Of a DNA stretch of 64,000 nucleotides, positions 17,066 through 59,470 are shown one piece after another (the stretch's first letter is position 1; each line of letters begins with the position of its first letter). Both the position numbers and the translations under genes were made by a program. Origin of the DNA: Patescibacteria group bacterium (GTDB lineage: Bacteria; Patescibacteriota; Patescibacteriia; JBAZBY01); NCBI GenBank assembly GCA_041671225.1, contig JBAZBY010000001.1:690060-754059 (forward strand), written 5' to 3'. The notes below the pieces were generated by a model. It did no database searches. It saw nothing but the letters and a program-made list of their open reading frames with translations, and was not told the DNA's origin.

Positions 17066-17256
17066 ACGGATTCAAAAAGCATGGTAAAGAGGTACCCCAT
17101 CATGATGATGCCGAAACCGACCACACCGGCAAAAACGCCTACCCGCGCTTTGAGTTGATCGTCGGTGAGATCCGGATGCTTTTTCTTCATCTCATTCCAG
17201 TATTTTTGATAGATATTCCGCTGTACATCACGAGAGCGAAAACCATCAAAGCACAA
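17062..17256 (-). pseudogene. gene fragment: duplicated internal segment of the vanX-like dipeptidase gene
   Basis: encodes 'FDGFRSRDVQRNIYQKYWNEMKKKHPDLTDDQLKARVGVFA', near-identical to residues 63-105 of the full gene at 18208-18864; it then diverges. Confidence 0.5.
17128..17250. repeat. 124-bp direct repeat, copy 1 (about 94 percent identical to 18541-18664)
   Basis: aligned by eye; about 7 mismatches. Confidence 0.8.
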
Positions 17257-18207: not shown

Positions 18208-18864
18208 TTATATTCTTGGCGCCTCTTTGATCTCCCCGTACATGGCATGCGGCTTGTGCAGCGTGTATGCCCACAACTGATTGCCATAGTCAAAATGCCA
18301 CCACTCATCTTTGTCCTGTCGAAATTCTGCCGCATCCATGGCTTCGCGCAAGCGCTTGCGATTCTGACGCACTGTCTCATTAATGGAATAGTTCTCGTAG
18401 TAGAATGCCGCCGCCTCCGGTCCAAAGTGATCAAACGCTGTTCCCATGGCGAGCTCATTGCCGTTTTTGTCGGCAAGTGTGAGATCCACTGCCCCTCCTG
18501 TGCTATGAGGAGGAATGCGGCTTGGCTGGTCCGGGTCTGTGGCAAAAACACCTACCCGCGCTTTGAGCTGATCGTCAGTGAGATCCGGATGCTTTCCCTT
18601 CATCTCATTCCAGTATTTTTGATAGATATTCCGCTGTACATCACGAGAACGAAAACCATCGAAGATCTTGATGCGAAAACCGGGAAGGCAGCGTTGCACC
18701 TCCATCAGCCGCTCAACAACGCCTTGGCGCAGGAACATGCGTTCATCCTGCGAAAGCTTTTGTTGAAAGTAGGAAGGCTCCAAGACAAGAACATTCTGAT
18801 CCAAGGCGACCAAAGGCTCATTCGATTCAAGAATTGGGATGGATTCAAATGCAATAAGGGTCAT
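18208..18864 (-). CDS. D-Ala-D-Ala dipeptidase (VanX/DdpX, M15D family)
   Basis: 'IFDGFRS', 'STGGAVDLTL', 'EWWHFDYG' zinc-ligand and catalytic motifs aligned to VanX. Confidence 0.8.
   Translation of the reverse strand: MTLIAFESIPILESNEPLVALDQNVLVLEPSYFQQKLSQDERMFLRQGVVERLMEVQRCLPGFRIKIFDGFRSRDVQRNIYQKYWNEMKGKHPDLTDDQLKARVGVFATDPDQPSRIPPHSTGGAVDLTLADKNGNELAMGTAFDHFGPEAAAFYYENYSINETVRQNRKRLREAMDAAEFRQDKDEWWHFDYGNQLWAYTLHKPHAMYGEIKEAPRI
18541..18664. repeat. 124-bp direct repeat, copy 2 (inside the vanX-like coding sequence)
   Basis: see copy 1. Confidence 0.8.
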
Positions 18865-21358: not shown

Positions 21359-21428
21359 CCTCCTCACTGGAGTGGGGCCTACATTGAGCCCTTTGTTTCA
21401 TCTCTTGCATTGGAGAAGGAGGAGTTCC

Positions 21429-22148
21429 ATGGGAGACACTTCTACGGTCCAGAAACGGCCGATCGTCGGCAAGGAAGTGCTTGCGAGGGCGATCTGCGAG
21501 CAGTTCAAGGATGACGCGGCCCCGATGCATCTGCCCGAGGCACGCATGATGGTCGATACCGTACTCGGCGCCGTCGAGCAGCAGCTCGTTGCGGGCAACG
21601 ACATCCGGTTCATCGGGCTCGGCATCATCGAGGTGAAGGATGGCGTTCCGCAGTTCCGCCCGGCAGACGCTCTGCAGGCGGCCATCATCGCTGCTACGAA
21701 CCCGCCGCCGGCCAAGGACGGAGACGCCAAGGAGCCGGCCAAGGACGGAGACGCCGAACAGCCCGTCGGCGAGGGCACCACCGAGACCGAGGGGGACGGA
21801 GCACCCGCCACGGAGACCGAGCCAGTGACCGCCGAGTCCAACGCCGATCCTCCCGCGGAGGAGGTGGCCGGCAGTGAGGAGGACGGCACTGCCGAGCCCG
21901 CTGCCAGCGAGCCCGAGGCTGCCGGCGAAGGGGAACCGCCTACCGATCCGCCTGAGGAGGCTGCGCCCGCTGAGGAATCCGCCTCCGAGGATGGAGACGC
22001 CGAACCCGCTGCCAGCGAGCCCGTCGCCGGCGAAATCGTGGACCCGGGTAGCCAGGCGCCAGCGATTCAGGTCGGTGCCAAGGACACCCCCGTCGAGGTC
22101 GGCGAGAAGGCGCAGGCAGTCGGCGCCACCGAGGGCGCTGAGAGCTAG
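21429..22148 (+). CDS. HU/IHF-fold-like protein with a long acidic Pro/Ala/Glu-rich C-terminal tail
   Basis: strong SD GGAGAAGGAGGAG before the ATG at 21429; N-terminal about 90 aa align loosely to the HU dimerisation core ('AGNDIRFIGLGIIEVKD'); the beta-arm is not conserved; tail has repeats such as PAKDGDAKEPAKDGDAEQP. Confidence 0.5.
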   Translation: MGDTSTVQKRPIVGKEVLARAICEQFKDDAAPMHLPEARMMVDTVLGAVEQQLVAGNDIRFIGLGIIEVKDGVPQFRPADALQAAIIAATNPPPAKDGDAKEPAKDGDAEQPVGEGTTETEGDGAPATETEPVTAESNADPPAEEVAGSEEDGTAEPAASEPEAAGEGEPPTDPPEEAAPAEESASEDGDAEPAASEPVAGEIVDPGSQAPAIQVGAKDTPVEVGEKAQAVGATEGAES

Positions 22149-22173
22149 ATCCGCATGTTCTGAGTTCGTTTCG

Positions 22174-22210
22174 GTCGGAACCTCCCCGTGGGGTTCCGGC
22201 CGTTTTTCTC
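22174..22210 (+). terminator. rho-independent terminator (cggaacctcccc/ggggttccg + TTTTTCT)
   Basis: directly after the HU-like stop. Confidence 0.55.
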
Positions 22211-22394
22211 ATGTCATAAATTATGTTATTCTTTCTTTATGGAAGTCACGGGTAATCAAATTTTTGGCGTTATCATCGCGTTAGTACTTCTTGGTATTGT
22301 TTATTTATACACATACAAGAAGTGGTAGGGGATAGGCGCGTGTCCCACTCTCAAGTGAATCCCCGTGAGGGGATTTTTTATTTGTACAAAACTC

Positions 22395-22422
22395 TTGACG
22401 CGCTTGTTCACGGTGCTACAAT
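22395..22422 (+). promoter_or_regulatory. strong sigma70-like promoter: TTGACG, 16-nt spacer, TACAAT
   Basis: would start a roughly 460-nt leader containing GCCGTCGC repeats and the 74-nt element before the gene at 22888. Confidence 0.5.
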
Positions 22423-22591
22423 GAAGTTACAAAAGAGCCGTCGCAGATAATCAGCGCCGTCGCAAAAAAAGAAAACGTTCGCTCGTTACATTACACAGGG
22501 GATAAAACACTGGAGTTTTTCTTTGTTACACGTGCGCCGTCGCGAGGCGAGCGCCGTCGCAAAAAAAGTGGATAACCTCCTTGTTCGTGAC

Positions 22592-22665
22592 CTGGCCAGC
22601 ATTGCGTTTCCGTTCTTAACCATTTTCCGCCACCAAAATGGGTCTCTCGGAATCACACTGGCCAG
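22592..22665. repeat. 74-nt element bounded by palindromic CTGGCCAG octamers with an internal hairpin CCATTTT-ccgccacc-AAAATGG, copy a
   Basis: about 50-nt core near-identical to the copy at 23821-23896. Confidence 0.7.
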
Positions 22666-22887
22666 ATCAGGGATGAGGAAGTGCCTCGTCTCGATTGCTC
22701 CAATGTGGAGCAAAGGCGGCACGCACCTTAACAAGCGTGAATAAAGGCTAGACGATACCGTTCAATCCACATAATTGATGCGCGGTTTGGACTCGCGCAT
22801 CCTTCTGGTTCCACATGTTCCGGCAAACTGTACTCCCGTACAGCAAGAGGAGGACGGACCACTTGCAGTAAAACAAAGGAGCATCAC

Positions 22888-23292
22888 ATGCTAACATCCC
22901 CAGCTCCTATCGTTCTCGCAATTCCTGACATACAGCCCGAAGTCCGTTCCACGATCGTCGAACACATCGCGCGGGAAGAGCATGTCAATAAGGAGCGCGC
23001 AGGACGCATCTTCGATGCGCTTCTGCATGTCTTCGCCTTGGCGATGTGCTTCCAGCACAAAGTGTTTCCGCTTGCGCCGAGCATCGGAAGAGCGGAAACG
23101 ACGTTCCAGCAGTTCCCCGTTGCATACCAGGCGTATTGCAGAGCGCTTGGACCAAAGCCGGTGAGGGTGAGAACTGGTTCCTATGAGACCAGCGAGCCCA
23201 GCCCGTTCTTTGGTCCCGAGTACACGATCCAGTTCATGATCGCCAACGGCATCGTTTTCGACGAGGACGTCTGGCGTGAGAAAAAGGAGTAG
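22888..23292 (+). CDS. hypothetical protein, paralog 1 of a tandem pair (134 aa)
   Basis: SD AAGGAG; shares 'R.GR.FDAL.H..A.A..F' and 'F..A..EY..C..LG' blocks with the next gene; no known family. Confidence 0.6.
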   Translation: MLTSPAPIVLAIPDIQPEVRSTIVEHIAREEHVNKERAGRIFDALLHVFALAMCFQHKVFPLAPSIGRAETTFQQFPVAYQAYCRALGPKPVRVRTGSYETSEPSPFFGPEYTIQFMIANGIVFDEDVWREKKE

Positions 23293-23298
23293 AGCGCC

Positions 23299-23724
23299 AT
23301 GCAGACGCCACTTTCGCTGAAACCCCCAGTGGCCATCACTGTCCCGGCGGTGGCCTGGCCCTTCCGTGACGAGCTCATCGACGTGTTCGCAACCCAGGAG
23401 CGCATCTCCCGTTCTCGTTCTACCCGTGTCATCGACGCACTCTTCCACTTCCTTGCTGTGGCCGCGACGTTCCGGGGGCGAAACCTCAGACCCGCGGATG
23501 AGATCTCCGCAGCGTGGATGCTCTTCGTCGCATATACAAAGGAGTACACCGAGTTCTGCGACGAGCTCGGCGGCTACATCCACTTCCGGCCCGCTACCAG
23601 TCCCCGTACCATCGCAACCACCACGCCGGCGGATGCGATCAACCTCATGGAGAAGTTCGAGATCCCGTTCAACAAGATGGTGTGGATGCCGGAGTGCGTA
23701 TCTCCGGAGACGGTCAAGTCCTGA
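23299..23724 (+). CDS. hypothetical protein, paralog 2 of the tandem pair (141 aa)
   Basis: SD AAAAAGGAG; paralogous to 22888-23292. Confidence 0.6.
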   Translation: MQTPLSLKPPVAITVPAVAWPFRDELIDVFATQERISRSRSTRVIDALFHFLAVAATFRGRNLRPADEISAAWMLFVAYTKEYTEFCDELGGYIHFRPATSPRTIATTTPADAINLMEKFEIPFNKMVWMPECVSPETVKS

Positions 23725-23820
23725 TTCACGCAGATAGAGAACAGTAGAGGCTTCGGCCTTTATTGACATAATGGGGAGTGGTGGCGCTGGTGGCTGCTAC
23801 TCCCCGACCTTTTTCGCGAT

Positions 23821-23896
23821 CTGGTCAGCGCATTGTTTCCGTTCTTAACCATTTTCCGCCACCAAAATGGGTCTCTCGGAAGCAGTTCCTGGCCAG
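23821..23896. repeat. 74-nt CTGGYCAG-bounded element, copy b
   Basis: see copy a. Confidence 0.7.
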
Positions 23897-24048
23897 GTCG
23901 GGGGAAAGGAACAGTAACGTTACCCCGATGCCTATTTTCTTTTTTGGGGGCATTATTTTCACCGCATGTTTTATGTTCATCTTCAGCAAGAGACGACGCA
24001 TGAAAAAGCCGAATTCACAATATACGATTTTCATCTGGTGATTTCTTG

Positions 24049-24130
24049 CTTCCCGTCTGGTGGCAACCGGGAGGCCGGAAACTCGTCCAGCTTCTAGCTC
24101 AAGGTGGCTCGCACCTTACATCGGTCGCAG
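24049..24130. promoter_or_regulatory. conserved upstream box (family copy 1): tggcaaccgggaggccggaaactcgtccagcttctagctcaaggtggctcgcaccttacatcggtcg
   Basis: about 80 percent identical over about 70 nt to 33301-33370; partial copies at 36149-36190 and 22718-22745; always 90-220 nt upstream of a start codon. Confidence 0.4.
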
Positions 24131-24160
24131 ACACGCGGCCACAGATAGAGGAGGTACGCA

Positions 24161-24820
24161 ATGTACCGCATACGAAACACGTGGAGTGTTGCGACGTGTT
24201 GGGTCGCGATCCTCTGCATGCTTACCATCCCGTTGCTCTCCGGGTGCTCAGAGGACCACGCGCAGGTCATTGCTCCGCCGCAGGAGCAGACCGCGCCCTC
24301 GGTGCCGGATCAGTACGCACAGTATGAGGCCCAGGGAACGCTGATCCAGCAGTGGATCGATCGCATGGACCCGTACGTCACGCAGAACGCCGACGGCACG
24401 TTCGTCTGCGACTGGCAGGCGTTTCAGCAGGATCTCGCGCGCACCAATCCCCAGATTGCGCTGGCTCTCAACGGCGCCGCCACTCCGGGCAAGGACGCCA
24501 AGGTGATCGTGGAACTGCGCGACGGAATTCCCATCGCCAACAAGGCGCTCAAGGAGCAGCCCGAGGGCATGACGCAGACCGCGTCCACGCGTTGCTACTG
24601 GCGCTGGTGGGGTCGCACCTGCTGCTACACCGGCTGGGATGCTGAAGTTGCCGTATGGACCAATGCCGCCGCGGCTGTCGTGGCGGGCATCGCCGGAGGT
24701 CCGATCGGCGCGGGGGTGGTCGCCTACATCGCGTGGGTAGCTGAACGTCTCACCGATCAGTGTGGTGGGTTCTGCATCAACGCAACGTGGGTTGGCGGCT
24801 TCTGGCTTACCTGTCCGTAG
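24161..24820 (+). CDS. lipoprotein with a Cys/Trp/Gly-rich hydrophobic C-terminal region
   Basis: lipobox 'LLSGC'; C-terminus 'CYWRWWGRTCCYTGW...AAAAVVAGIAGGPIGAGVVAYIAWVA...DQCGGFCINATWVGGFWLTCP', reminiscent of Gly-rich bacteriocin-like peptides. Confidence 0.6.
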   Translation: MYRIRNTWSVATCWVAILCMLTIPLLSGCSEDHAQVIAPPQEQTAPSVPDQYAQYEAQGTLIQQWIDRMDPYVTQNADGTFVCDWQAFQQDLARTNPQIALALNGAATPGKDAKVIVELRDGIPIANKALKEQPEGMTQTASTRCYWRWWGRTCCYTGWDAEVAVWTNAAAAVVAGIAGGPIGAGVVAYIAWVAERLTDQCGGFCINATWVGGFWLTCP

Positions 24821-25260: not shown

Positions 25261-25665
25261 ATGGACGTGAACAAAGTCACGCTCATCGGGAATCTGGTGC
25301 GGGACCCCGAAGCAAAAGAGACCAAAGGCGGAAACTCCCTTGCAACGTTCAGCGTTGCAACAAACCGCGCATGGCGGGATGCGGAGTCAAAAGAGAAGAA
25401 AGAGGCGGTGGAGTATCACAACGTGATTGCCTGGGGCAGGCTCGCGGAGATCATCAGCGAGTATGTGAAGAAGGGCAATAAAGTGTATGTGGAAGGCCGT
25501 CTGGCCAACCGCAGCTTTGAAGGCAAGGACGGTAAGAAGCGGTATTACACCGATGTGGTTGCAAGCAACCTCATCATGTTGACGCGTAAGCCCGCGGTGA
25601 AGGAGGACACTCCTGCAGCCATGGCGCCTGAAGAAGTGAACGTCGAGGAAGTCGTCGTCGCATAG
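25261..25665 (+). CDS. ssb: single-stranded DNA-binding protein
   Basis: OB-fold 'VTLIGNLVRDPE...TFSVATNRAW...HNVIAWGRLAE...VYVEGRL'; short acidic tail 'EEVVVA'. Confidence 0.85.
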   Translation: MDVNKVTLIGNLVRDPEAKETKGGNSLATFSVATNRAWRDAESKEKKEAVEYHNVIAWGRLAEIISEYVKKGNKVYVEGRLANRSFEGKDGKKRYYTDVVASNLIMLTRKPAVKEDTPAAMAPEEVNVEEVVVA

Positions 25666-36253: not shown

Positions 36254-36368
36254 TTTTTTCAGAGAACAACTGAATTTTCTATACTCATGGAACCAGTAAT
36301 TGGGGCGGAGGGTTCCGGACTCACTTATTTCAATACCTATCCAAGGCCATAGCGGCTTTGTTTTTTGT

Positions 36369-37037
36369 ATGGATTTGATTACCGCATTACTTTTTCTTGT
36401 CGGTATCGCCGATGTGGTGATTGGCGTATATATTGGCATACAAAAACCAGTGACCACCATCCGTAAATCGTACACATGGGTGGTGTTTGGAACAGCTGGG
36501 TGGGTATTGGCGAATGCTGTTTTTCGACTTATGAGCACGGATGCCGCTGTTGAAATTGCGGAACGCCTCACGTTCTTATTCGGCACCGTAGCGACATCAG
36601 CCTTTCTCTACTTCTCTTTCGTTTTCCCATATACAAAGCGTCCCCTGAAGCAATGGATGTTTTTGTATGTAGTTTTAAGTGCTGTCGTCATTTGTATTTT
36701 TGCCTTATTTACAGAATTTTTTCTTGTTAGAAGCGTTTCAGTTGGATCACATGAAAGTATCAGTACCTATGGACAATTCTACGCAGTATTTTTTATTTGG
36801 TTTATTGGTACTTGGATATGGAGTATTGCGAATCTTCTATTGAAGTATAAGGATGCAGATGCGTTTTCTCGTTGGCAAATACGCATGATGCTGTTTGCGG
36901 TTCCGTTAACAATTATTCTCGCAATTCTTTTTGATCTCATTGCGCCGTATCTCCAGATTGCTGGCACAGGGTGGTTCGCTTCAGTATCATCGGTTATTTG
37001 GCTGGGTTTTACTGTTTATATTGTGATGAAACGATGA
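36369..37037 (+). CDS. stand-alone polytopic membrane sensor-domain protein, paralog A (ends ...YIVMKR)
   Basis: about 7 TM helices; 'DAFSRWQIRMM' block; homologous to the N-terminal membrane domain of the histidine kinase at 40191; stop overlaps the next start (ATGA). Confidence 0.65.
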   Translation: MDLITALLFLVGIADVVIGVYIGIQKPVTTIRKSYTWVVFGTAGWVLANAVFRLMSTDAAVEIAERLTFLFGTVATSAFLYFSFVFPYTKRPLKQWMFLYVVLSAVVICIFALFTEFFLVRSVSVGSHESISTYGQFYAVFFIWFIGTWIWSIANLLLKYKDADAFSRWQIRMMLFAVPLTIILAILFDLIAPYLQIAGTGWFASVSSVIWLGFTVYIVMKR

Positions 37038-37699
37038 ACACCACCGACATCCTTTCCTGGTTCAACATCGTGGTTGCCGCAGCAGAGCTCTATTTTGCAT
37101 TCTATATGCTGCTCACGCGCGTGCGGAGCAAGGTGAGCGTTTTTTATTTTTTGTTTTCCCTTGGAGTTGCGGGGTGGGTATACAGCATCGGCGGGTTTTA
37201 TCTGTTTGAGAATCCAGGGGTCGAGCGGTTTCACCTCAACCTCGCGTATATTTCCGCCTCGCTCATCATGTCGGCGCTCTTTCTCTTTGCCATGGTGTTT
37301 CCTTTCCAGAAGCGGCGACTGGGGCTGGAACACTATGCACTCGCGATCCTTCCATTCCTGGCATTTGCGGTCGCATCCTTCGCGCATCAGATCCTCACCG
37401 GTTACATCAAAGATCCCACGGAGTATTTCCTTGGTCCGCTGTACACGCCGTACACCATCTATATCGTGGGATATTATCTCATTGCCATGGCGCTGTTGGT
37501 GGAAAAGTACCGTATGAGTGACGGCATCCACCGCTGGCAGCTCAAGAATCTCATTTTGAGCCTGCTCTTTGCGGGCGTCATGGGCGTTACCTTCAACCTG
37601 CTGATCCAATTCTGGGGCATCGCGTATCTGAACCACGTGGGAACCCTTGCGTCGGTCATTTGGTTCAGCACGACCTTATACATTGTGATGAAGAGATGA
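37034..37699 (+). CDS. stand-alone membrane sensor-domain protein, paralog B
   Basis: 'DGIHRWQLKNL' block, ends ...LYIVMKR; ATGA overlap at both ends. Confidence 0.65.
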   Translation: MNTTDILSWFNIVVAAAELYFAFYMLLTRVRSKVSVFYFLFSLGVAGWVYSIGGFYLFENPGVERFHLNLAYISASLIMSALFLFAMVFPFQKRRLGLEHYALAILPFLAFAVASFAHQILTGYIKDPTEYFLGPLYTPYTIYIVGYYLIAMALLVEKYRMSDGIHRWQLKNLILSLLFAGVMGVTFNLLIQFWGIAYLNHVGTLASVIWFSTTLYIVMKR

Positions 37700-38376
37700 T
37701 TGACCAGCCATATTTTGCAATTGCGGCCATGATAATAATAGGGCTTTTTGATTTTGGATTCGCATCCTTTATTTTTACCCGCTATCAACGAGAGTCGCGG
37801 ATTATCATGTATGGCATGTTTGCGCTGATGGTTGGTGGGTGGGTTCTCCTCAATGGGGTTGGTCTACTCTTTGAGCGAGGCGGTGCAACCTCAGATTTTT
37901 TTGGTCGAAGTGCATTTGTCTTTGCGGCTTTCATTTTTCCGTTTATGTATGTCTTCTCTGTTCTTTTCCCATTCCCATCAGCGCGTATTGACGGACGGTT
38001 CGTTTTTCTTGCCCTGCTGCCGGCAATACTTTTGTCCGCCCTTGCATACTTCACCGACGCACTCATTCAGGGGTTTGATTTAACTCGGTATGCACAAACA
38101 ATACCCGGTGAGGGTTTTTGGCTCTACGTGCTGTATATACTGATATTCTTTGGATTAATTCTTGCGGAACTCCTCGGTAAATTCCGGCGTTCCGATGGCA
38201 TTCATCGCTGGCAACTAAAGTACTTAATTATTGTCATAGCCCTTTCTGGCTTTATCGGCATTATCACGGTACTTATTTTGCCTTATATCTGGTACTTTGA
38301 CTCACTTGCATGGATTGGGCCATGTTCATCAATCATTTGGCTTGGTGGGAGTATGTATATTGTTATGAAGAGATGA
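37696..38376 (+). CDS. stand-alone membrane sensor-domain protein, paralog C
   Basis: 'DGIHRWQLKYL' block, ends ...MYIVMKR. Confidence 0.65.
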   Translation: MIDQPYFAIAAMIIIGLFDFGFASFIFTRYQRESRIIMYGMFALMVGGWVLLNGVGLLFERGGATSDFFGRSAFVFAAFIFPFMYVFSVLFPFPSARIDGRFVFLALLPAILLSALAYFTDALIQGFDLTRYAQTIPGEGFWLYVLYILIFFGLILAELLGKFRRSDGIHRWQLKYLIIVIALSGFIGIITVLILPYIWYFDSLAWIGPCSSIIWLGGSMYIVMKR

Positions 38377-58860: not shown

Positions 58861-59470
58861 GACGCAACTTCACAAGATGGTCGCTCCGTCTTCGCCCCCT
58901 GCTTCGCAAAGGGCTGCGACGGACAAGCCCCGTAAGCACAAAAGGGCCTGTCCGCCGTAGCTCTGAACGGAGTGAGGAGCGAAGGCGGAGAGGAAAGTCC
59001 GAACACCCCACGTGGTGCTCGCGGCACTCTAAAAATGGGAGTGCGACGAGCGTCACGTGGAAGTGGATACCACCGAAATGGTGGCAGGAGTGATCCTAGG
59101 GAAAGTGCCACAGAGACAATACCGCTCCGTCTTCGCCCCCTGCTTCGCAAAGGGCTACGACGGACAAGCCCCTGTTATTGCATCGTGCAATAGGCCTGTC
59201 CGCCGTAGCTCTGAACGGAGTGAGGAGCGAAGGCGGAGTAAGGGTGAAAAGAGTGGGGTAAGAGCCCACAGGCAGGTCTGGTAACAGATCAGCGTGGCAA
59301 ACCCTATCCGGTGCAAGATCGAATAGGCTCGCGTGCTTCATTTTGTGAGGTGCGCCGAGCGGGTAGATTGCTGGATCGCGTTGGTGACAACGCGGCAAGA
59401 GAGATGATCATCACCTGCAAACCGTGAGGAATGTAGGGACAGAATTCGGCTTATCGTGAAGTTGCGTCCC
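58861..59470 (+). ncRNA. rnpB: RNase P RNA (bacterial type A core) with two large inserted hairpins
   Basis: P1 pairing 58861-58873 (gacgcaacttcac) with 59456-59468 (gtgaagttgcgtc); P4 'GGAAAGTCCGAACAC' at 58992-59006; J11/12-P12 'TAAGGGTGAAAAGAGTGGGGTAAGAGCCCAC' at 59239-59269; P13-like 'GGTCTGGTAACAG'; 3' P4 'ACAGAATTCGGCTTAT' at 59439-59454. Confidence 0.85.

Follow-up and report, generated by a model that had tools for sequence, protein, structure and literature searches.

A conserved promoter-box module and two extended RNA hairpins around a tandem PF27765 gene pair in a Patescibacteria genome

Results

The locus described here lies in a window, meaning the whole 64,000-nucleotide stretch that was analysed (positions 690,060 to 754,059 of contig JBAZBY010000001.1, 1.03 Mb, assembly GCA_041671225.1), from a metagenome-assembled genome of the Patescibacteria (candidate phyla radiation, CPR). 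Reading along the plus strand from a putative promoter, it comprises a module of short repeated boxes, an extended hairpin (copy A), two paralogous open-reading frames of the PF27765 family (ORF1 and ORF2), and a second copy of the hairpin (copy B), and it is followed by a small open-reading frame (sORF2), a lipoprotein-like gene, a 99-residue ORF and ssb (25261-25665). With moderate confidence, we read this locus as chromosomal regulatory architecture at the head of a transcription unit, with the hairpins acting as RNA, and not as a mobile cassette. Gene regulation in the Patescibacteria is almost unknown; the organisms are uncultured and very few recognisable regulators are found in them. 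A preliminary description, made from the sequence of the window, had presented the two genes as a cassette and proposed either a miniature mobile element that mobilised or frames it or a structured regulatory leader, and the results below bear on both of its proposals. The feature coordinates are collected in Table 1. Further assemblies of the window sequence (L002 and L003) were found among the comparators, and the sole close relative, hereafter strain 2, is represented by two contigs from run SRR22388171, L001 with the homologues ORF1' and ORF2', and L006 with the region from the lipoprotein gene to ssb.

The promoter-like site at the head of the locus is the best such site of the region, and four of the five copies of GCCGTCGC in the window, including two perfect 19-mers (AGCGCCGTCGCAAAAAAAG), fall just downstream of it at 22437-22560. 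Both the promoter and the iterated repeats had been recognised in the preliminary description and were borne out, while their conservation in other Patescibacteria had been missed. With the 19-mer as query, blastn-short against the retrieved loci returned a perfect match in L086 (Candidatus Kerfeldbacteria, JACQKI010000053.1) and a 16-mer match in L023. L022, a contig labelled 'Patescibacteria group bacterium', was added by looking for exact copies of GCGCCGTCG in these loci; among the loci examined, clusters of exact boxes were confined to these three and the window. Alignment of the four regions gave a shared layout of CTTGACG-16/17-TAnnnT, about 14 nt, GCCGTCG, N9, AGCGCCGTCG, an A-run, a spacer of 57-75 nt, one or two boxes AGCGCCGTCGC, and GT(G/T)GATAA, with every part present in all four, including the CTTGACG and TAnnnT -10 elements at 16-17 nt in L086, L022 and L023. 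In the window, box 1 lies 14 nt past the -10 element. Each of the four lineages places the start of box 2 exactly 19 nt past that of box 1, keeps AGCGCCGTCG.AAAAA unchanged, and has box 4 and GTGGATAA; box 3 is present solely in the window and L086. The spacer sequences are unrelated to one another, GC-rich or AT-rich according to the genome, and the boxes remain invariant and GC-rich even amid AT-rich spacers.

Each box is a 10-nt quasi-palindrome, (A)GCGCCGTCGC, that is self-complementary at 8 of 10 positions, and all 13 boxes seen share one orientation. Because the boxes share one orientation and lie in the region predicted to be transcribed, recognition at the DNA level and at the RNA level are both possible, and the invariance of sequence at fixed positions argues for sequence-specific recognition by a factor. 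Most likely, a putative sequence-specific factor binds the boxes, either as a DNA operator or at the RNA 5′ end. The position of the module relative to ssb varies with the lineage. In L022 the module ends 50 nt ahead of the ssb start codon, in L086 it stands ahead of ssb followed by a tandem PF27765 pair, and in L023 it stands ahead of a four-helix-bundle ORF and then ssb; in the window, it is followed by hairpin A and the gene order given above. Judged from these alignments, the module is conserved and putatively cis-regulatory, and other Patescibacteria have it beside ssb.

Other interpretations of the box module were considered and set aside. RNAalifold lets box 2 pair with box 4, and an RNA structure was rejected since pairing occurs only between self-similar boxes and shows no covariation. 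One stretch, TTATCCACT, matches the DnaA box at 8 of 9 positions. A replication origin was rejected, given that DnaA boxes are not enriched in the window, the cumulative GC skew lacks a clean switch, and plus-strand genes lie on both sides. Fifty-two matches to the box pair in viral contigs were attributed to chance, as they fall in GC-rich coding DNA with no other part of the module. As a motif, the box was found neither in the literature nor in Rfam.

The hairpins follow closely upon other elements, copy A starting 2 nt past the box module and copy B 1 nt past the terminator-like stem behind ORF2. Two direct copies with a shared core had been described before as 74-nt elements with the same palindrome at both ends; the copies and the core stand, in that an apical core of 47 nt is identical and in direct orientation in both (22606-22652 and 23835-23881; matched by 0 of 100 shuffles), and the length and the palindromic start of copy B do not. 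Similarity and pairing reach 13 nt past the 74-nt bounds on either side, giving elements of ~100-105 nt, and copy B opens with CTGGTCAG rather than CTGGCCAG, its U pairing with G in the stem. Beyond ~105 nt the flanks of the two copies are unrelated, so the copies are not part of a longer duplication, an alternative that had been raised for them.

Folding of the sense strand gave -43.8 kcal/mol for copy A (z -4.5) and -53.7 kcal/mol for copy B (z -6.8), compared with -29.5 kcal/mol (z -0.6) for the minus strand of copy B, which folds weakly because several of the pairs are G-U. DNA folding parameters reproduce this strand asymmetry for copy B, and each copy can also fold as single-stranded DNA. 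In the predicted architecture, an outer stem of 8 + 12 bp with one 1-nt bulge per side leads to a variable middle, where copy B adds as many as 10 pairs; beyond it, a 7x6 internal loop (UUCUUAA/GUCUCU) separates a 5-bp stem from a 7-bp stem that is closed by an 8-nt loop, CCGCCACC. With stems of ~30 bp, the hairpins have the near-continuous double-stranded RNA of at least ~20 bp, about two turns, that characterises an RNase III substrate. Between A and B, two outer-stem pairs are changed on both sides (G-U to U-A and U-A to C-G) and several others by wobble; across three sequences (A, B, and the strain 2 copy B'), 96% of cells are paired, with 2 compensatory pairs and 6 one-sided changes, all from G-U to G-C or A-U. 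The outer 8 bp pair only through G-U wobbles in both copies, and the termini are the most diverged part of an element with an identical interior of 47 nt. The sequence following each copy (AAGUGCCUCG after A, AACAGUAACG after B) provides no direct U-run, and the terminator scan reports neither hairpin as an intrinsic terminator. Coding potential of the hairpins was rejected, as the ORF that crosses hairpin A is put out of frame by indels between the copies and by the loss of 1 nt in L001 a little downstream of this hairpin. Kissing of the loop CCGCCACC with GGUGGC was likewise dropped, as GGTGGC shows no significant enrichment and such motifs are found in L004 too, a relative without the hairpin.

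Comparison with strain 2 provided a measure of selection on the hairpins. Contigs L001 and L006 both end within the repeat core, from which we infer that strain 2 carries both copies. The 3′ half of copy A is identical at 60 of 61 positions, and copy B', obtained by joining the end of L001 to the start of L006, is identical to B at 100 of 105. Of the five differences between B and B', three are stem changes that preserve pairing (two from U-G to C-G and one from C-G to U-G), one falls in a bulge, and one past the stem. Overall, the hairpins differ between strains at 6 of 166 positions (3.6%), compared with 4.0% for codon positions 1 and 2 and 14.9% for third codon positions of ORF2, P99 and SSB, so that the hairpins diverge ~4 times more slowly than the third positions (binomial p 2e-6). 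Adjacent DNA is much less alike, with identities of 64% for sORF2, 78% for the distal ORF1 leader, and 85% between the ORF2 stop and hairpin B. Differences specific to A and to B are common to both strains, indicating that both copies predate the strain split and have been maintained since. On this comparison, the hairpins look like selected sense-strand RNA elements under purifying selection and lie within a hairpin-rich leader and intergenic region, which bears out the structured regulatory leader that had been offered as one of two possibilities.

A covariance model based on A, B and B', with filters switched off for the window search, found only the two copies at this locus, 1.2 kb apart, in the 84 kb searched (the window plus 20 kb of extra flank, L088 and L089, together ~8% of the genome), and none in the flank or in ~100 other loci; further copies may lie elsewhere in the genome. 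A 24-mer from the hairpin core had no exact match in genome, metagenome or viral collections. In Rfam 15, nothing in the window reached the gathering threshold except RNase P and a tRNA, and a permissive search of 22150-24200 at E ≤ 5 gave two unrelated matches outside the hairpins and boxes and far below gathering scores, a Drosophila snoRNA (22222-22317) and a CRISPR repeat (22352-22387). An origin from a phage or plasmid was rejected, as no phage or plasmid record matches the hairpin and neither ORF1 nor ORF2 has a PHROG match. Relatives were also retrieved through ssb from GTDB genomes and Joint Genome Institute (JGI) metagenomes; the SSBs returned were only distant, at ≤61% identity, and among these loci the box module surfaced in 2 and the hairpin in none. 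In L004, the order is a PF27765 homologue, a small acidic ORF, a terminator and, directly after it, the conserved lipoprotein leader, with neither hairpin B nor sORF2, and no hairpin follows the box module in L086, L022 or L023. The absence of hairpins at matching positions in more distant relatives points to a gain in the window lineage, and the comparison indicates that this lineage acquired the hairpins before its two sampled strains split.

ORF1 and ORF2, deposited at NCBI as WCV86_04890 and WCV86_04895 of 'Patescibacteria group bacterium' (the next gene being WCV86_04900), are paralogs of 27% identity (E 1e-12). Between strains, ORF1' is 73% and ORF2' 88% identical at the amino acid level, and substitutions by codon position number 21/21/41 for ORF1 and 12/6/23 for ORF2, a third-position excess in both that supplies the plus-strand coding signal the preliminary description had wanted checked. 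The sense frame gives the best ratio of synonymous to non-synonymous changes. The long ORF on the opposite strand has more non-synonymous than synonymous changes (Table 1) and no Pfam match, and its frame stays open because of codon usage on the sense strand. On these substitution patterns, the antisense ORF is an artefact, as had been suspected, and ORF1 and ORF2 are real genes.

The two proteins had been described as paralogs of no recognisable family; the paralogy stands, and a family can now be named. ORF2 carries a precomputed match to PF27765 that is marked weak, and at E ≤ 1e-3 a profile of ORF1 and ORF2 retrieved 115 relatives, whose alignments span ~110-130 residues; proteins of the family have ~150 residues. 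The label PF27765 comes from precomputed annotation, and NCBI gives one Streptomyces member the name 'glycine-rich domain-containing protein'. Neither protein matched the local Pfam copy, which contains no PF27765 model, or NCBIfam or PHROGs. The family consensus, PSxxVDxGWHTFLLYTRxYxxFC...GxFIHHxPxD followed by a Cys-rich tail, contains near-invariant residues (D..WH.....Y..C ... IHH.P.D) that are not kept in ORF2 (AAWMLF...YIHFRP) or in ORF1 (RAETTF...YETSEP), and the Cys-rich tail is missing from both. ORF1 and ORF2 are divergent and may be non-catalytic members of PF27765. In the Protein Data Bank (PDB), no solved structure was found among PF27765 relatives and no nucleic-acid-binding relative of the ORF1/ORF2 fold.

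Canonical PF27765 genes occur in tandem in L086 (4001-5238; 150 and 175 residues), directly downstream of ssb and with a non-coding region of ~260 nt upstream of each, and L004 has a single homologue in matching synteny, without hairpins. Tandem pairing and linkage to ssb thus recur in two distant Patescibacteria lineages, and the L086 pair points to a conserved ssb-PF27765 linkage in the Patescibacteria. This recurrent linkage is a first contextual clue to the role of PF27765 proteins.

Other features of the locus and the window

Table 1 Features of the locus, in order of position (window coordinates)
Feature	Position	Strand	Basis
Sigma-70-type promoter (predicted), TTGACG-16-(TG)TACAAT, head of conserved module	22395..22422	+	Consensus scan 10/12, TG extension
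Box 1 (GAGCCGTCGC, 22435-22444) and box 2 (GCGCCGTCGC, 22454-22463), then A7 run	22435..22471	+	Four-lineage alignment
Box 3 (22534-22543), box 4 (22551-22560), A7 run, DnaA-box-like GTGGATAA (22568-22575)	22534..22575	+	
Hairpin copy A, extended RNA hairpin of ~100 nt; similarity to B runs to 22683	22579..22678	+	Covariance model score 110 bits
Structured ORF1 leader: conserved first 62 nt, variable hairpins, Shine-Dalgarno sequence; motif AAGGCGGCACGCACCTTA at 22713-22730	22684..22887	+	
ORF1, 134 residues, divergent PF27765 (UCP032817-like) paralog	22888..23292	+	Paralogy, profile search
Antisense ORF of 292 residues, not a gene	22891..23769	-	Frame has 9 synonymous vs 25 non-synonymous changes; sense frame 17/17
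ORF2, 141 residues, PF27765 (UCP032817-like) paralog without the family WH and HH histidines	23299..23724	+	
Terminator-like hairpin after ORF2	23772..23806	+	Terminator scan; weak U-tract CCUUUUUC doubles as 5′ arm of hairpin B
Hairpin copy B, extended RNA hairpin of ~102 nt; similarity to A runs to 23912	23808..23909	+	Covariance model score 130 bits
sORF2, hydrophobic peptide of 37 residues (MPIFFFGGIIFTACFMFIFSKRRRMKKPNSQYTIFIW), between hairpin B and lipoprotein leader	23928..24041	+	Frame of 23778..24041 ORF
Structured leader of lipoprotein gene, AAGGTGGCTCGCACCTTA at 24101-24118	24042..24160	+	92% identical in strain 2; homologous leaders in L004, L005, L006

The ORF1 leader is conserved unevenly, at 93% identity to L001 over 22684-22745 and 78% over 22746-22887, and at the position of its hairpin 22777-22801 L001 has a different self-complementary sequence instead. 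A palindromic motif, AAGG(Y)GGC-N3-5-GCACCTT, is found in this leader and in the lipoprotein leader, at the two positions given in Table 1, and also in the lipoprotein leaders of L004 (~785-805), L005 (2-18) and L006 (~250-266); contig L005 ends 1 nt upstream of the motif. The terminator-like hairpin behind ORF2 has a homologue in L004, where a T-run comes immediately after it and hairpin B is missing, and no terminator was predicted between 23806 and ssb in the window. The sORF2 peptide is MVYVIFGGILLVAGRMMISNGKRRAKRSVSEYTVLIW in strain 2 and is conserved despite a DNA identity of 64%; it is missing from L004. A second hydrophobic peptide of 29 residues (MEVTGNQIFGVIIALVLLGIVYLYTYKKW) is encoded by sORF1 (22240-22329), between two terminators just upstream of the promoter, and both small ORFs lie in AT-rich islands. 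A type I toxin-antitoxin system formed by hairpin B and sORF2 was rejected, as hairpin A has no small ORF, the promoter-like site on the antisense strand lacks conservation, and that strand folds weakly; repeats of a type III (ToxI-like) system were rejected as well, there being just two units and no toxin-like gene.

Among the neighbouring genes, the lipoprotein-like gene (24161-24820; lipobox LSGC) has an amino acid identity of 54% between strains, compared with 95% for the 99-residue ORF beside it, and the DNA of the 99-residue ORF and ssb is 93-94% identical. So fast a divergence suggests that the lipoprotein-like gene encodes a surface protein exposed to diversifying pressure. The gene immediately upstream of the locus (21372-22148) encodes a protein whose N-terminal domain weakly resembles HU/IHF (Pfam Bac_DNA_binding, E 0.0014) and whose acidic, low-complexity tail of ~160 residues has internal repeats.

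Repeats of other kinds were also found in the window. The RNase P RNA (Rfam match 59009-59462) contains a hairpin of ~110 nt twice, at 58881-58990 and 59123-59238, with 98-100% identity and folds of -69 to -74 kcal/mol each (z about -7 to -8). The first lies just before the conserved GAGGAAAGUCC, at the P3 position and outside the Rfam match, and the second is inserted into the P12 region; the RNase P RNA gene probably has its true start upstream of 58881. A 124-nt direct repeat of 94% identity (17128-17251 and 18541-18664) flanks a methyltransferase-like gene of 425 residues on the minus strand and resembles coding sequence when read on that strand. Finally, three tandem ORFs of ~240 residues in an AT-rich stretch (36300-37037, 36971-37699, and 37660-38376) have similar 46-nt ends and are probably a tandem paralog array.

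Discussion

Under the reading that we favour, a transcript would start at ~22429 and run through the leader toward the lipoprotein gene and ssb, passing the weak terminator at 23772-23806 at least in part, and the hairpins would act in cis within this long transcript. Their ~30-bp stems could be cut by a double-strand-specific RNase of the RNase III type, or could protect RNA ends, and by either route the ORF1-ORF2 segment would become an mRNA with a stability of its own. The 47 invariant apical nucleotides, with the loop CCGCCACC and the 7x6 internal loop, are probably a specific binding site as well, since invariance of this core suggests an additional specific partner. Several points weigh against this reading. 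RNase III needs no conserved apical sequence, so cleavage alone leaves the identical 47-nt core unexplained, and the terminator-like hairpin behind ORF2 may stop most transcripts before hairpin B. The covariation rests on three full hairpin sequences from two closely related strains and is not significant alone against shuffle controls. For the box module, there are four instances, and it was not found upstream of ssb in the relative L005.

The alternatives differ in what they make of the hairpins. A palindromic miniature insertion element (a miniature inverted-repeat transposable element, MITE, or a Correia- or RUP-like element) may have landed twice and left functionless relics, with the RNA hairpin a by-product. 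This accords with several observations: relatives lack hairpins at the corresponding positions; compared with L004, hairpin B and sORF2 together resemble an insertion; hairpin A begins 2 nt past a conserved module that has no hairpin there in L086, L022 or L023; and the ~110-nt hairpin duplicated in two RNase P RNA stems shows that duplication of hairpins occurs in this genome. A presence/absence difference at orthologous sites is therefore real, with both hairpins present in strain 2. The details of the elements themselves point the other way. The flanks (..AACCT|..|AAGTG for A and ..CCCGA|..|AACAG for B) contain no target-site duplication, diverged termini that pair only through G-U around an identical interior are the reverse of the pattern of transposase-bound terminal inverted repeats, and the annotated flanks hold no transposase. 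Only two copies, 1.2 kb apart, occur in 84 kb, none appears in public collections outside the species-level lineage, and the hairpins diverge ~4 times more slowly than synonymous sites. The selection signal makes a functionless palindromic insertion less likely, and overall we consider such relics an unlikely explanation. The MITE-like element that had been suggested to mobilise or frame the cassette finds no footing in these features, nor does mobility of the cassette itself in the synteny, as both copies stand at the same positions in strain 2, and the relatives L004 (one homologue) and L086 (a tandem pair) have such genes without hairpins. Site-specific recombination is further removed still. 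Direct repeats with 47 identical bases do flank a 1.2-kb two-gene segment, and each can fold as single-stranded DNA, as would be expected if they were attC-like sites of an integron, other site-specific sites, or repeats at which RecA mediates excision or amplification, and ORF1-ORF2 an excisable cassette; yet the element ends lack RYYYAAC/GTTRRRY cores, pairing relies on G-U(T) wobble with a strand asymmetry that favours the sense strand, the annotated flanks hold no integrase or recombinase, no third copy follows the next gene, and the segment is kept in both strains in a region where relatives have the genes without the repeats. We regard this explanation as highly improbable.

A serious rival is that the hairpin is an operator RNA, bound specifically by a protein or another RNA in the manner of nut/put-type sites or autoregulatory leaders, that co-regulates ORF1-ORF2 on one side and sORF2 and the lipoprotein gene on the other without processing by a nuclease. 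The apical core is identical in both copies and both strains and the outer stem varies with compensation, as one would expect if a partner recognised the apical motif and the stem were generic, and each copy stands upstream of a structured leader and an ORF. Against such an operator, no candidate binder was found, and the PDB holds no nucleic-acid-binding relative of the ORF1/ORF2 fold; the second unit yielded no promoter; and more distant relatives have those genes without the hairpin. We give the operator a minor share of the probability, and keep to the reading in which the hairpins act within the long transcript by being cut or by protecting its ends.

A more ambitious possibility, which we put forward only tentatively, is that the box module is a previously undescribed, Patescibacteria-wide cis-regulatory system controlling ssb and linked genes through a putative DNA- or RNA-binding factor, possibly with DnaA, and that the ~100-nt hairpin is a new class of structured RNA partitioning an operon into separately regulated mRNAs. 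Apart from this possibility, the promoter-box module beside ssb in at least four lineages is a concrete, testable regulatory motif. The hairpin pair offers a case of a long palindromic element that appears to be kept by RNA-level selection instead of decaying, which bears on the gain of RNA structure in streamlined genomes.

The elements of this locus resemble several known systems and depart from each. Correia elements (CREE/NEMIS, Neisseria), RUP, ERIC and REP/BIME are similarly ~100-150-nt intergenic elements that are co-transcribed with adjacent genes, as proposed here, and form long RNA hairpins, and Correia elements are cut by RNase III, altering mRNA stability. These families differ in that their many copies are dispersed and have conserved terminal inverted repeats and target-site duplications, whereas the window has two copies at one locus, no target duplication, termini that are the least conserved part, and an invariant apical core. 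The RNase III sites of phage T7 early and late mRNAs, which delimit separately stable mRNAs, and the processing stems of rRNA are also related hairpins with internal loops that recur in the same direction between the genes of a long transcript, and the stem length here (~20 bp outer and ~10 bp inner) is within the range of RNase III substrates. Compared with these, the element in the window, a putative processing site, is longer and its apical part strictly conserved, which RNase III would not need. The GCGCCGTCGC boxes are, like MetJ met-box operators and promoter-proximal DnaA boxes, short and self-complementary, with fixed spacing just downstream of a promoter; unlike these, they all have the same orientation and lie in a region expected to be transcribed, and recognition at the RNA level is equally possible. 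The alignment of ORF1 and ORF2 with the PF27765 family, which forms tandem pairs in another Patescibacteria genome as well, covers both proteins from end to end; they differ from the family in lacking the near-invariant WH...HH histidines and the Cys-rich tail.

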